In this document: piece after piece, positions 26,160 to 29,108 of the stretch
Layout of the letters: each line of letters opens with the position of its first letter
How positions within the stretch are numbered: the stretch's first letter is position 1
Assembly (NCBI GenBank): GCA_002771615.1
Contig: PCSD01000094.1
Location: 1 to 30,645 of the forward strand
Reading direction: 5' to 3'
Length of the DNA: 30,645 nucleotides
From: Candidatus Falkowbacteria bacterium CG23_combo_of_CG06-09_8_20_14_all_49_15
Lineage (GTDB): Bacteria; Patescibacteriota; Patescibacteriia; Patescibacteriales; UM-FILTER-48-10
Made by a program: the position numbers and the translations under genes
The notes under the pieces: model-generated
What the model was told of the DNA's origin: nothing
The model's input: only the letters and a program-made list of their open reading frames with translations
Database searches by the model: none

Positions 26160-26510
26160 CTAATCAGGCTTGATCGCGACTGTTTGATTGTTGCGCGTCA
26201 AATAAATATTGTCCGAGCCGCTCGGCACCAAACCGATTTTTTGCGCTTGGGCCGACACGGACTCCAGAGCCGACATCTTGGCCGCCAGCAATTCGTAGTC
26301 GCCGTTTTCCCGGCGTAATTCGCCCAAACAGGATTTTTTTTCAAATATTTCAAAACCCTTGCCGGACAAACTGTTGACCACGGCCGCGTTGCCGAACAGC
26401 AGGAATAAAACCAACAAGGATAACGCCCAGGCCAAAGATCGGAAGCTTGGGCCCTGTTTGGCCAAGCGGCACCGGCGGATCAAAGAACATTTTATTTTTG
26501 TTTTAGTCAT
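26160..26510 (-). CDS. FtsL-like cell division protein (TM plus coiled coil)
   Basis: 116 aa, basic N-terminus, one TM helix, heptad region; between rsmH and ftsI; 8-bp overlap with rsmH. Confidence 0.7.
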   Translation of the reverse strand: MTKTKIKCSLIRRCRLAKQGPSFRSLAWALSLLVLFLLFGNAAVVNSLSGKGFEIFEKKSCLGELRRENGDYELLAAKMSALESVSAQAQKIGLVPSGSDNIYLTRNNQTVAIKPD

Positions 26511-27423
26511 GAGTATTGATAATCCGAATCGCGGCGCGCAGTTTGGCGCTTCTGGCTCGGGGATTATTTTTGATTTCAGCGGCGGCGGGCACTAAAGGTT
26601 TTTTTGTCAGCAGGCGCAAGGCCGGCTCCGGCCCGTCGCTTATCCGTGATTTTTGCCGGAAAAAAATCTTCACGATCCGATCTTCCAAACTGTGGTAGGA
26701 AACAACCGCAATCACTCCGCCCGGACGCAGGCAACGGACAGCCGGCGCCAAAGCGGCGGATAAATTGCCCAGCTCGTCATTGACGGCGATGCGCAAAGCT
26801 TGAAAAACACGAGTGGCGGGATGAAGGCGGCGGGACGGGGGCTGGACAAAACTCACAATCCGCGCCAGTTCAGCGGCCGTGCGGATTTTTTTCTTTTGCC
26901 GCGCTTCTTTAATGGCGCGAGCGATGCGCCGGGAATTCCTTTCCTCGCCGAAACGGAAAAAAATATCCGCCAGCTCTTTTTCTGTCCGAAAATTTATCAG
27001 ATCATACGCGTTGGGACCTTGGTTGGCGATATTCATATTTAAAGCGCCATCGGATTGGAAAGACATGGCCAAATTTTCATCCTGAAGCTGGTCCGAAGAT
27101 AAACCCAAATCAAAAACAATGCCCGCCGCTTTTCCCCAAAATTCAGGACAATGGCTTTTTACCGCTTCTTCCAAATAGCGGAAATTAGCCTCGGCCATGA
27201 GTAAATTTTCCAGGCCTTGTTCCTGGTGCAACTTGTTCAAACGGTCAACGGCGCGCCGATCATAATCCAAGGCCAAGACCAGTCCTTGCGGGCCGACTTT
27301 AGCCGCGAAAGCCAAACTGTATCCCCCGCCCCCGGCCGTTGAATCAACGATAAAATCGCCCGGACGCGGATCAACCAAGCGGATCACCTCGTCCCGCATG
27401 ACTGGTTGATGGGCCGTGGCCAT
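26503..27423 (-). CDS. rsmH: 16S rRNA m4C1402 methyltransferase
   Basis: HQPVM..EV, VDSTAGGGGYS, FDLGLSSDQL, FGEE, HPATRVFQALRIAVNDEL, SYHSLEDRIVK, NPRARSAKLR; start moved from TTG 27486 to ATG 27423. Confidence 0.97.
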   Translation of the reverse strand: MATAHQPVMRDEVIRLVDPRPGDFIVDSTAGGGGYSLAFAAKVGPQGLVLALDYDRRAVDRLNKLHQEQGLENLLMAEANFRYLEEAVKSHCPEFWGKAAGIVFDLGLSSDQLQDENLAMSFQSDGALNMNIANQGPNAYDLINFRTEKELADIFFRFGEERNSRRIARAIKEARQKKKIRTAAELARIVSFVQPPSRRLHPATRVFQALRIAVNDELGNLSAALAPAVRCLRPGGVIAVVSYHSLEDRIVKIFFRQKSRISDGPEPALRLLTKKPLVPAAAEIKNNPRARSAKLRAAIRIINTHD

Positions 27424-27436
27424 AGTGAAAAATAAT

Positions 27437-27568
27437 TTATAAAACCAAAGCCCGGGCGCGGTCAAACAGCAAGCGGCGCAATTCAATCGTATTGACGAGC
27501 GGCGGCTTGATGATGCGGACCCGGACTTTTTTTTGATTTTGATTCTGGCTGATTTTTATTTTGGCCAT
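27437..27568 (-). CDS. Putative 43-aa basic small protein between mraZ and rsmH; not in the ORF track
   Basis: MAKIKISQNQNQKKVRVRIIKPPLVNTIELRRLLFDRARALVL*; A-rich leader; 22 of the last 29 codons end in G/C; fills the gap, stop 13 nt before rsmH. Confidence 0.6.
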   Translation of the reverse strand: MAKIKISQNQNQKKVRVRIIKPPLVNTIELRRLLFDRARALVL

Positions 27569-27622: not shown

Positions 27623-28054
27623 TCAAATATCCAGATTGCCGAGATTTTCCGCGATCTCCGCGCTGTTTTTCTCTGTCCCGGTCTTATATTTCCCCCAATT
27701 ATCCTCGTCCCAAATTTCCAAACGGTTATAAAGCCCGGCGACGATGACTTTCTTTTTTAAACCGGCAAAGTGGCGAAGATATTCCGGAAGATTGATCCGA
27801 CCTTGGCTATCAAAGTCAACTTCCGCGGCGCCGCTGAGCATAAAACGGGCAAAAGCCCTTGATTTTGACTGGCCGATTGGTAAGTTGGAAAGCTTTTCCG
27901 CCAGAGCGGCCCACTGCTTTTTCGGATAAACGATCAGACAATTATCCAAGCCCTTGGTCGCGACCGCCCCTTCTTTCAATAAAACACGAAACTTGGCCGG
28001 AATCGCCATCCGTCCTTTTTCGTCTAAGCTATGCTTGTATTCACCGATAAACAT
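27623..28054 (-). CDS. mraZ: Transcriptional regulator MraZ
   Basis: MFIGEYKHSLDEKGRMAIPAKFR, TKGLDNCL, DSQGRI, GLYNRLEIWD; 143 aa from ATG 28054. Confidence 0.98.
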   Translation of the reverse strand: MFIGEYKHSLDEKGRMAIPAKFRVLLKEGAVATKGLDNCLIVYPKKQWAALAEKLSNLPIGQSKSRAFARFMLSGAAEVDFDSQGRINLPEYLRHFAGLKKKVIVAGLYNRLEIWDEDNWGKYKTGTEKNSAEIAENLGNLDI

Positions 28055-28161
28055 GCGGCCCAATGCTATTAAACGGAAATTTTAATGCTTAAAAGAATAT
28101 GTAAAACAATAATTAATGGAATTTATTTTTGTTTTTGTTTGTCTTTTTTTGATTTTTATAT

Positions 28162-28455
28162 TTATCGTTTAAGGCCGATAAGGAGGCCGGTCAATCTGTT
28201 TGTGGCGATTGAACCAGACCCCTTCTTTGTCTTAAAACCGCTTCGGATTGATTTTGCTGGCCCGAAGCTTTCCAGCCAAGCATGTGTTTTTGTTTTTCGG
28301 CCGGCGTTAATTGTCTTGAACCGTCCGGAAGACTCTTTTTTATTTTTGTTTGCTTTGCCGTTTATTTTTGTTTTAGGCAGACAAGGAGGTCGGCCATAAA
28401 GACCAAACCCCTTCTTTGCCTTAAACGCGCTTGCTAAAGGCGCGCTGATCCCCAT
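28162..28455 (-). CDS. Doubtful 97-aa Lys-rich ORF spanning the structured leader
   Basis: ATG with A-rich upstream context, but low complexity, and the homologous 3' arms of the repeat are read in different frames. Confidence 0.2.
   Translation of the reverse strand: MGISAPLASAFKAKKGFGLYGRPPCLPKTKINGKANKNKKESSGRFKTINAGRKTKTHAWLESFGPAKSIRSGFKTKKGSGSIATNRLTGLLIGLKR
28168..28432 (-). ncRNA. Candidate structured leader RNA with two copies of one stem-loop motif (28432-28372 and 28243-28168)
   Basis: 27/31 identity between 5' arms; stem AAGGGGUYUGGU/RCCGRCCUCCUU with a U-A to C-G compensatory change; A-rich linkers; no match to RNA families I recognise. Confidence 0.6.
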
Positions 28456-28487
28456 GCTATTTTATTTGGTAAGGCGTAAAATGAACT

Positions 28488-28514
28488 TCACCATATTTCA
28501 CCACTCATCACCAT
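28488..28514 (-). promoter_or_regulatory. MraZ operator (three direct repeats, 10-bp period)
   Basis: ATGGTGAtga-GTGGTGAaat-ATGGTGA just downstream of the -10; same architecture as known triple MraZ boxes. Confidence 0.8.
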
Positions 28515-28523
28515 TATGATTTT

Positions 28524-28552
28524 ATTATATGCCACTGGTGGCCCTATGTCAA
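28524..28552 (-). promoter_or_regulatory. Consensus sigma70 promoter of the dcw operon
   Basis: TTGACA (28552-28547), 17 nt, TATAAT (28529-28524). Confidence 0.9.
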
Positions 28553-28594
28553 CATTTTCCAGTAAAATTTAATTTATTTAATATTAAAGACAAA

Positions 28595-28630
28595 AATAAA
28601 AAAAATTCGGCCTATGCACAGGCCGAATTT
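28595..28630 (-). terminator. Intrinsic terminator after tsaB, insulating the dcw promoter
   Basis: Perfect 11-bp stem AAATTCGGCCT-gtgcat-AGGCCGAATTT followed by a T run. Confidence 0.85.
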
Positions 28631-28697
28631 CGTAAAAAAATATTTATCAATTATTCTAACACGTTTTTTTCAACATTCCGTCCACAAGTTAGAAAGT

Positions 28698-29108
28698 TTA
28701 CAGGAGTTTTTTCTTCTTGGTAATGCGGGGCGGACAACGGTACTCGGGCAAAATCACCTTAAAGCCGTTTTCCCCGACTTCGGCCGGATTGGCAAAATTG
28801 GGATCATTTAAACCTCCCCAAATGAATAAATTGCATTTCCAGCCATATGCCAAGGCATTGGCCGTGGCCGCCACAATCCTTTGGGTGGTATAACTTTCTC
28901 CCCGCGGATTAGCCAAAACCGCGTCAAGCGCGGTCTTTTCTAGGCCGCTTTGCTTGAGCAAGCGGTCTAATCCGGACAGAATAGCTTCCCCGTGGTCCAC
29001 CGCCGGATCTAAAATCGTTTGCGCGCAAATTTCCCCCCGGACGCGCAAAGCCAGATAAATGGCATCCTTTTTAGCTCCATCAATGAGAAGCTGGAATGTT
29101 TTCCGCAT
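28698..29108 (-). CDS. tsaB: Short, divergent TsaB-like protein (t6A biosynthesis)
   Basis: L.ID, H.E.IL..LD.LL, LDAV, G.SYT..RI..ATANALAY pattern; 136 aa, lacks the usual C-terminal half. Confidence 0.7.
   Translation of the reverse strand: MRKTFQLLIDGAKKDAIYLALRVRGEICAQTILDPAVDHGEAILSGLDRLLKQSGLEKTALDAVLANPRGESYTTQRIVAATANALAYGWKCNLFIWGGLNDPNFANPAEVGENGFKVILPEYRCPPRITKKKKLL

Follow-up and report, generated by a model that had tools for sequence, protein, structure and literature searches.

What is carried by the approximately 460 nucleotides (nt) that separate the promoter of mraZ from its start codon in Candidatus Falkowbacteria bacterium CG23_combo_of_CG06-09_8_20_14_all_49_15? The gene heads a division and cell-wall (dcw) operon within the stretch analysed here, positions 1 to 30,645 of contig PCSD01000094.1 (assembly GCA_002771615.1), which is referred to as the window. 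A first-pass annotation had described a tandem stem-loop RNA in this leader and proposed it as a ligand- or protein-binding cis element controlling division and cell-wall genes. Our analysis confirms its place in the transcribed mraZ/dcw leader and revises its architecture: the hairpin, termed HP3, is the last domain of a larger unit and is tandem in a minority of genomes only. HP3 represents a new family of orphan leader RNAs, the general kind of which is known.

A large part of bacterial diversity belongs to the Patescibacteria (Candidate Phyla Radiation, CPR). They are mostly uncultured and ultra-small, and possess few recognisable regulators. To our knowledge, nothing is known about the control of division in these organisms. 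The element described here is a sequence-defined RNA tied exclusively to mraZ/dcw, and is represented by two covariance models and more than 80 distinct examples. Its compact versions, at about 190 nt, are of a size suited to probing, gel shifts and reporter assays.

Two hairpin copies in the mraZ leader

All element coordinates are given in window numbering and refer to the minus strand, which is the sense strand of mraZ. On this strand, the terminator of a TsaB/TsaD-like gene is followed by the promoter Pmra, three MraZ boxes, the leader, mraZ, rsmH, an FtsL-like open reading frame (ORF) and a gene for PBP/FtsI (Table 1). With the ATG of mraZ at 28054 and a transcription start site (TSS) inferred near 28517, the leader measures about 463 nt.

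The two copies of HP3 are closely similar. Their 5' arms (28432-28402 and 28243-28213) are identical at 27 of 31 positions and start 189 nt apart, and their 3' arms (28396-28365 and 28193-28162) show 78% similarity. Folded alone, each copy gives a two-tier hairpin, with -29.1 kcal/mol (z = -3.6) for copy 1 and -24.7 kcal/mol (z = -2.6) for copy 2. When the whole 467-nt leader is folded, copy 1 forms again, and so does the inner helix of copy 2. Copy 1 is 59 nt long, and copy 2, with 73 nt, exceeds it by 14 nt. Differences between them preserve pairing: at pair 8, the U-A of copy 1 is replaced by C-G in copy 2, and at pair 12 the U.G of copy 1 by U-A. Both copies share a G.U at pair 5, a U/C mismatch at pair 7 and a U.G at pair 9. 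The covariance model R1, described below, scores copy 1 at 60.0 bits and copy 2 at 61.5 bits (E ~1e-11), and finds no further copy in the 1.07-Mb genome of the organism.

These observations bear out what the first-pass annotation had said of the locus, namely a promoter with MraZ boxes about 460 nt 5' of mraZ, two copies of one element about 190 nt apart, a two-tier stem in each, pairing-preserving differences with two wobbles and a mismatch kept, and inner hairpins that differ by 14 nt. The annotation had also argued that a 97-aa ORF spanning both copies reads homologous 3' arms in different frames. This is correct for the 3' arms and needs an addition, as 189 equals 63 x 3 and the ORF thus reads both 5' arms in one frame.

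Table 1 Features of the mraZ leader and its surroundings in the window, from 5' to 3' on the minus strand
Feature	Position	Strand	Evidence or remark
Intrinsic terminator of the upstream TsaB/TsaD-like gene	28602..28631	-	Stem of 13 pairs, then a T-run; bounds the mraZ transcription unit on its 5' side
Pmra promoter, TTGACA-17 nt-TATAAT	28524..28552	-	12/12 consensus matches, perfect sigma-70 promoter
Three MraZ boxes, [AG]TGGTGA[AT]	28487..28514	-	~10-nt spacing, immediately 3' of the -10 element
GCAUGGGGAUC element, unit 1	28447..28457	-	Conserved in about two thirds of leaders; the start AUG of the 97-aa ORF lies within it
97-aa ORF over both hairpins	28162..28455	-	Not a gene
Hairpin H2, unit 1 (GCGCGC stem, loop from GCCUUUA)	28425..28445	-	Fold; counterpart of the relatives' covarying hairpin/small pseudoknot
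Hairpin copy 1 (HP3-1)	28369..28427	-	P1 UUAAGGC/GCCUAAA, 5x5 internal loop, P2a AGGGG/CCUCCU with G.U, U/C mismatch, P2b, 5-nt loop
A-rich tract (AAACAAAAAUAAA type) opening unit 2	28333..28368	-	Counterpart of the relatives' conserved AAAAUAAAAACAAAAA block
H1-like hairpin, loop UCAAGACAAUUAAC	28298..28327	-	Fold; degenerate copy, assigned by loop similarity and position only
Hairpin H2', unit 2 (GGCUGG/CCAGC)	28255..28282	-	Fold z = -1.7; assigned by position
Hairpin copy 2 (HP3-2)	28166..28238	-	Architecture of copy 1, apical part 14 nt longer
A-rich tract after copy 2	28120..28165	-	Sequence; repeat families D1 and D2
mraZ	27623..28054	-	ATG 28054, start MFIGEY, Pfam MraZ 9.6e-40; first gene of mraZ-rsmH-ftsL-ftsI

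HP3 is a conserved sense-strand RNA structure

Comparison with relatives by blastn yielded 21-nt matches to the 5' arm with 95-100% identity in many families. The loci behind these matches contain complete hairpins, which differ in their apical parts. Seventeen of these hairpins were aligned, folded with RNAalifold and used to build the covariance model R1. The consensus is composed of a 7-bp outer helix P1 (UUAAGRC/GYCUUAA), a 5x5 internal loop, helix P2a (AGGGG/CUYCU), a 1x1 position and an upper helix P2b. This structure was tested first on 41 sequences and then on 103, of which 83 are distinct.

Among the 83 distinct sequences, 94.2% of the cells are paired, and 10 of the 18 pairs show changes on both sides, with 92 compensatory cells. 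None of 500 shuffles attains the observed value on any of five measures, and sliding the partner strand reduces pairing to 28-59%. Nine nucleotides in the hairpin are invariant. Within P2a, A16-U79 and G17-C78 never change and G19.U76 is a wobble in all 83 sequences, while G18 is opposed by C or U about equally often. The purine strand AAGAAGGGG is invariant. It includes one side of the internal loop (AAGA), whereas the opposite strand of this loop is variable (YNUKR).

The structure also belongs to one strand. The minimum free energy (MFE) is lower for the sense than for the antisense strand in 38 of 41 sequences (means of -28.7 and -23.2 kcal/mol), and R1 gives 50-75 bits on the sense strand versus 22-44 bits on the antisense strand. 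G.U pairs become C/A mismatches on the other strand, which agrees with the better folding of the sense strand. HP3 is thus shown to be a sense-strand RNA structure under purifying selection, including the purine strand and the invariant G.U wobble. The first-pass annotation had proposed selection on the RNA, and had named a lack of conservation or covariation in relatives, as well as conservation of the 97-aa protein, as arguments against a leader RNA. The relatives do show the hairpin with covariation, and do not conserve the ORF.

HP3 is specifically associated with mraZ

HP3 is confined to part of one order. When R1 was run on 151 sampled genomes of the window's order, 60 proved to have the hairpin, each at a single locus; a further 147 genomes, drawn from other orders of the class, gave no match. 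It is present in all sampled members of families f16 (18/18), f9 (5/5) and f19 (4/4) and in 11 of 19 members of f3; families f10 (0/19), f12 (0/18), f17 (0/11) and f8 (0/9) lack it. Altogether, roughly 15 or more families of the order bear the element. A scan for the exact 21-mer in 185,579 genomes, one per species, returned 24 matches, whose titles mostly read Patescibacteria group, Candidatus Falkowbacteria or Parcubacteria. A few lie in metagenome-assembled genomes titled "uncultured Gammaproteobacteria", "uncultured bacterium" or "bacterium". One of the 24 matches, in Neobacillus, and six metagenome matches to the 21-mer are not recognised as a hairpin by R1, and were rejected as chance matches. 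Several of the loci L074, L077, L079, L083 and L092 carry the title 'uncultured Gammaproteobacteria bacterium'; their mraZ loci are Patescibacteria-like, and the titles look mislabelled.

Wherever the context can be read, the hairpin lies upstream of mraZ on the same strand. This holds for 12 of 12 loci in the first set and for all 36 loci that reach far enough. Of 80 metagenome loci, 72 have the hairpin upstream of mraZ, which are all 72 that can be decided; two others are cut by a contig end and six have no hairpin according to R1. The gene mraZ itself is present in 149 of the 151 genomes of the order. The same consensus promoter is found in relatives about 150 nt 5' of the hairpin, and the triple MraZ box follows the promoter in relatives both with and without the hairpin. 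Hairpin-negative families have only ~10-130 nt between the promoter with its three boxes and the ATG, so in part of the order the stretch from operator to start codon is expanded by the structured leader. Taken together, we hold with high confidence that HP3 is a conserved structured leader RNA specific to mraZ.

The distance from hairpin to ATG ranges from 13 to 456 nt and is 13-35 nt in 13 of 36 loci. No promoter-like site was found between hairpin and ATG in the window and two compact relatives. This, together with the short distance left in the 13 loci, places the hairpin in any mraZ mRNA made from Pmra. In one relative (G007; L016:1582-1968, plus strand), a 128-aa ORF of the 23S_rRNA_IVP type (four-helix bundle; Pfam 3.8e-16) is inserted between hairpin and mraZ, and three other relatives have spacers of 420-460 nt. 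The spacer of L052 contains an AAUUAUG microsatellite of about 7 units with a partial inverted copy, and that of L093 a CATAATT-type repeat. The spacers between hairpin and mraZ evolve by insertion of junk sequence.

HP3 is the 3' domain of a modular leader unit

In single-copy loci, the upstream flanks of HP3 contain common modules, which are, from 5' to 3', an A-rich block, hairpin H1, GCAUGGGGAUGC, a second hairpin and HP3. The A-rich block has the conserved sequence AAAAUAAAAACAAAAA. H1 has a strongly covarying 6-bp stem with 8-15 double changes per pair, which is capped by a conserved 12-13 nt loop CCAAGAYAAUnnnC. The module GCAUGGGGAUGC is present in about two thirds of the leaders. The second hairpin also covaries, and its loop RGCC is able to pair with GGCY located just 5' of it, making it a candidate for a small pseudoknot. 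Pairs counted by script include a few compensatory cases in this pseudoknot, such as AGUC/GACU and GGCU/AGCC. A covariance model of H1, termed R2, finds one match per hairpin-positive genome, adjoining HP3. HP3 is therefore the 3' domain of a modular leader unit of about 190 nt rather than a stand-alone motif.

Tandem copies occur in 8 of the 60 hairpin-positive genomes, and most have a single copy. The tandem loci are distributed over four families (the window and G001; G030 and G006; G113, G050 and G128; G025). In all of them a GGGG element precedes copy 1 and an A-rich tract precedes copy 2. Most also have an H1-type hairpin between the copies, which is unseen in two f6 loci (L063 and L093). 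The upstream modules are gained and lost between lineages, and the copy number varies between one and two.

In the window, the spacing of 189 nt corresponds to the length of one unit. The sequence CAUGCUUGG precedes H2' and is a possible remnant of the GGGG element. R2 does not detect the H1-like hairpin of the window, which is too degenerate. From these sequence features, we read the window leader as a duplicated ~190-nt unit that has partly decayed.

Several further interactions were considered and rejected. Folding of GCAUGGGGAUGC as a hairpin with a GGGG tetraloop is contradicted by its 3' half, which varies without compensation. Long-range pairing of the H1 loop with the HP3 internal loop, P1, the linker or mraZ codons 2-4 shows no covariation. 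Moreover, an all-against-all scan of alignment columns returned nested helices and phylogenetic artefacts only. The sequence GCAUGGGGAU at 28457-28447 fits the MraZ-box pattern [AG]TGG[TG]GA[AT]. In the two thirds or so of leaders that conserve it, it is located ~60-150 nt 3' of the three boxes, and its 10-mer occurs 7 times in the genome versus ~2 expected. This sequence could be a fourth, distal MraZ DNA site or an RNA element.

HP3 does not match known RNA families or motifs

A scan of window positions 27900-28800 against Rfam 15, with E values up to 10, found nothing over 28166-28427. The only match with E below 0.01 was L20_leader, at 30.2 bits versus a gathering threshold of 58.7; it lies on the terminator of the upstream gene and is spurious. 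The same scan of the loci of 10 relatives gave nothing on the leader. Full-text literature searches found no description of the element. These results are in line with the first-pass annotation, which had not recognised the motif as a known riboswitch and had pointed to Rfam for a check.

Other candidate identities were also tried. An intrinsic terminator or attenuator does not fit, as neither copy is followed by a U-tract and A-rich sequence is found instead. A search of three leaders (the window and two relatives) for terminator-like sites recovered only the terminator of the upstream gene. A kink-turn would suit the 5' strand (GGC-AAA-GA), but only about 20 of 41 sequences have the opposite GA beside P1, and in the rest GG, UA, CG, UG or CA takes its place. 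The hairpins contain no MraZ DNA box, since AAGGGGUC does not fit the pattern [AG]TGG[TG]GA[AT]. Mimicry of the rRNA target of RsmH (16S rRNA near C1402, h44 tip and h45) was rejected as well: the organism's own h44 shares CAAAGAA only, and R1 finds nothing else in the genome. The 16S-like GAUCA is located in P2b, a freely covarying helix.

Possible functions of HP3

We tentatively favour, from comparison of the sequences, a factor-binding cis-regulatory RNA whose partner would preferably be a protein and whose action would tolerate distance. HP3 may provide, in cis, a site at which a trans-acting factor docks, with a protein being more likely than a small molecule. Such a factor would read the invariant purine strand, the G.U pair and the internal loop, and its binding would set the amount of full-length dcw mRNA or protein. 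The route would involve the stability or processing of the transcript, or else its elongation along the operon; that the ribosome-binding site (RBS) is masked directly seems less likely. A docking site with a protein partner is suggested by the invariance of one strand of the loop and P2a as opposed to the drifting facing loop strand, by the invariant G.U, and by modules that come and go with a variable copy number. A spacer of such variable length, which tolerates a microsatellite and the 23S_rRNA_IVP ORF, argues for a mechanism that should not depend on distance, and the lack of a terminator in the leader was counted in the same direction. Several observations weigh against this proposal. 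Genomes of sister families do without the element. A conserved internal loop in a rod-like hairpin, an adjacent pseudoknot and tandem copies are typical of small riboswitches too. In about one third of the genomes the hairpin ends so close to the ATG (13-35 nt) that an effect on translation initiation is possible there. Finally, the operon products RsmH and MraZ, or a dedicated RNA-binding protein, are the candidate binders, and they are guesses, as the hairpin is unlike the MraZ DNA box and no mimicry of the rRNA target of RsmH was found.

The element might instead be a small-molecule riboswitch, in tandem here, a possibility we consider rather unlikely. The HP3 loop, possibly together with the pseudoknot and H1, would then bind a metabolite and refold the leader to tune the dcw operon. 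Ligands tied to envelope growth or to RsmH chemistry would include a UDP-sugar or peptidoglycan precursor, SAM/SAH or a nucleotide second messenger. As expected of a riboswitch, the 5' leader contains a conserved, covarying structured domain with invariant loop nucleotides, next to an H-type pseudoknot candidate with some covariation. The tandem arrangement recurs in four families, the hairpin is near the ATG in 13 of 36 loci, and no known class matches. On the other hand, one strand of the putative pocket is not conserved and the modules are dispensable in many lineages. No expression platform, neither a terminator nor a helix that sequesters the RBS or Shine-Dalgarno (SD) sequence, was found, and the ATG lies up to 456 nt away. 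The GGGGA of the upstream element could pair alternatively with UCCUC of the HP3 3' arm; this switch is possible on paper and shows no covariation, including in L052 and L044. A bolder extension, which appears improbable to us, would be a new class of sensor RNA that directly couples an envelope or methylation metabolite to dcw expression in these ultra-small and host-dependent organisms, the duplicated unit giving a sharper or two-input response. In a variant of this idea, the RNA would be an operator for post-transcriptional autoregulation by RsmH or MraZ, forming a second layer over the MraZ DNA boxes. The hairpin could also serve the general machinery with no dedicated sensor, either as a processing or stability hairpin of the RNase III type or as an antitermination element like put or EAR for the long dcw operon. 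We judge this unlikely. An irregular duplex of about 22-28 bp with internal loops suits a double-strand RNase, the position at the head of a long operon is distance-tolerant, and copies are duplicated; however, such elements usually need less than the nine invariant nucleotides and the invariant G.U that HP3 has kept across the divergence of an order.

Two further explanations have much less in their favour. The 5' arm could be a masked SD-like standby or decoy site, with the CCUCCU of the 3' arm copying the 16S tail. The arm has a pairing energy of -12 to -14 kcal/mol with the 3' tail of the organism's own 16S rRNA, P2a with its G.U reproduces AAGGGG paired with CUCCUU, and mraZ is devoid of its own SD. 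This explanation is very unlikely, and an SD-sequestering helix was rejected likewise: no start codon follows the SD-like string, and likeness to an anti-SD is limited to roughly half of the sequences, as some half of the 3' arms have CUUCUC in place of CCUCC. The free covariation of GAUCA in P2b also speaks against the mimic. The absence of an SD before mraZ was also discarded as a special feature, since most genes of the window lack one anyway. It is almost certainly wrong that HP3 is no RNA element at all and represents a coding gene (the 97-aa ORF), a DNA operator or cruciform, or a dispersed repeat of the REP or MITE type. The ORF does span both copies and the arms do form a DNA inverted repeat. 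Against a gene, the ORF has no Pfam match, and its length, frame and start are not conserved. A leader peptide or upstream ORF from the AUG of GCAUGGGGAUG fails for the same kind of reason, since its length varies from 4 to 97 aa, neither the frame nor the stop position is kept, and the AUG is absent in about one third of the relatives. The G.U pairs and the strand asymmetry of folding oppose a DNA element, and the spacing of the arms varies with the apical insert. A dispersed repeat is incompatible with two copies only in 1.07 Mb and a single locus per genome in relatives.

If the element does bind a metabolite or a protein of the operon, dcw control would have a post-transcriptional layer in addition to the classical MraZ operator. 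A role confined to transcript stability would make it a modest addition to the orphan leader motifs.

Comparison with known regulatory RNAs

HP3 resembles several known systems in part. The PyrR binding loops of pyr attenuators and the RAT hairpins of LicT/SacY are protein-binding RNAs that overlap terminators and act by antitermination. Like HP3, they are short, with a purine-rich internal loop or bulge, one conserved face and a variable apex, and they are found in 1-3 copies per operon. They differ in that HP3 leaders contain no terminator. Tandem riboswitches and rod-like hairpin aptamers are represented by the glycine, guanidine-II, THF-II and xanthine (NMT1) classes. These share with the window two like domains in one leader and a conserved internal loop in a hairpin, whereas HP3 is without evident ligand or expression platform, has one conserved loop strand and is mostly single-copy.

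The HK022 put and Bacillus EAR RNAs are processive-antitermination leaders that act independently of distance at the heads of long operons and are sometimes duplicated. The likeness of HP3 to them concerns position at the operon head, distance tolerance and occasional duplication, with no similarity in sequence or structure. The binding sites of ribosomal protein S15 (16S h22 and rpsO leaders) contain a G.U/G-C recognition step. The invariant G.U followed by G-C within the HP3 helix (5'-GG/5'-CU) is of the kind read by proteins; this is a resemblance only, as the mraZ operon has no ribosomal-protein gene and HP3 no three-way junction.

The closest context is that of the mraW RNA motif (RF01746) of Actinomycetales, an orphan that is presumed cis-regulatory and is listed as RNA 'y', cis-regulatory 'y' and switch '?' (Weinberg et al. 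2010, PMC2864571). Both are structured RNAs that precede the division and cell-wall genes of the mraZ/mraW (rsmH) cluster, a likeness of context and not of membership. RF01746 is absent from the Rfam match lists of the window and the 10 relatives. HP3 belongs to another phylum, is located upstream of mraZ and downstream of the MraZ boxes, and is modular and sometimes duplicated.

MraZ operator and neighbouring genes

The boxes at 28514-28487 have the properties of a MraZ operator, that is, direct box repeats with ~10-bp spacing near Pmra. Their position directly after the promoter puts them within the first ~40 transcribed nucleotides. This operator is strongly conserved across the order (including L104-L117), with TTGAC-N17-TATAAT followed by three [AG]TGG[TG]GA[AT] boxes, typically GGTGAAaaGTGGGGAAttGTGGTGAA.

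No SD precedes mraZ in the window, with starts aligned to those of the relatives. Most window genes are likewise without SD and have A/U-rich upstream regions instead (for example, starts 26136, 24198 and 19850). GGAGG is found before a few genes only (for example, 17457 and 21970), despite a canonical 16S tail CACCUCCUUUCU.

Downstream of mraZ, rsmH is identified by Pfam as MraW methylase (1.5e-79), with the small FtsL-like ORF and PBP/FtsI further along. The listed rsmH ORF (26503-27486, minus strand) has TTG as its start codon, which extends the protein by ~21 residues N-terminal to the conserved METAHQPV-type start. The 3' end of this ORF shares 8 nt with the FtsL-like ORF (26160-26510, minus strand), and start-codon calls in this cluster need care. 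Upstream of the terminator, the gene at 28698-29108 (minus strand) encodes 136 aa with a weak, sub-threshold Pfam TsaD match (19.1 bits, the cut-off being 24.8); the product is possibly a TsaB-like protein in reduced form. In several relatives, what looks like the same gene lies directly 5' of the terminator and Pmra. The sequence AAAGAAGGGG recurs inside the mraZ coding sequence at 27965-27975 (minus strand, codons LKEGA). Its 9-mer occurs 14 times in the genome versus ~8 expected, and this recurrence in mraZ is probably due to chance.

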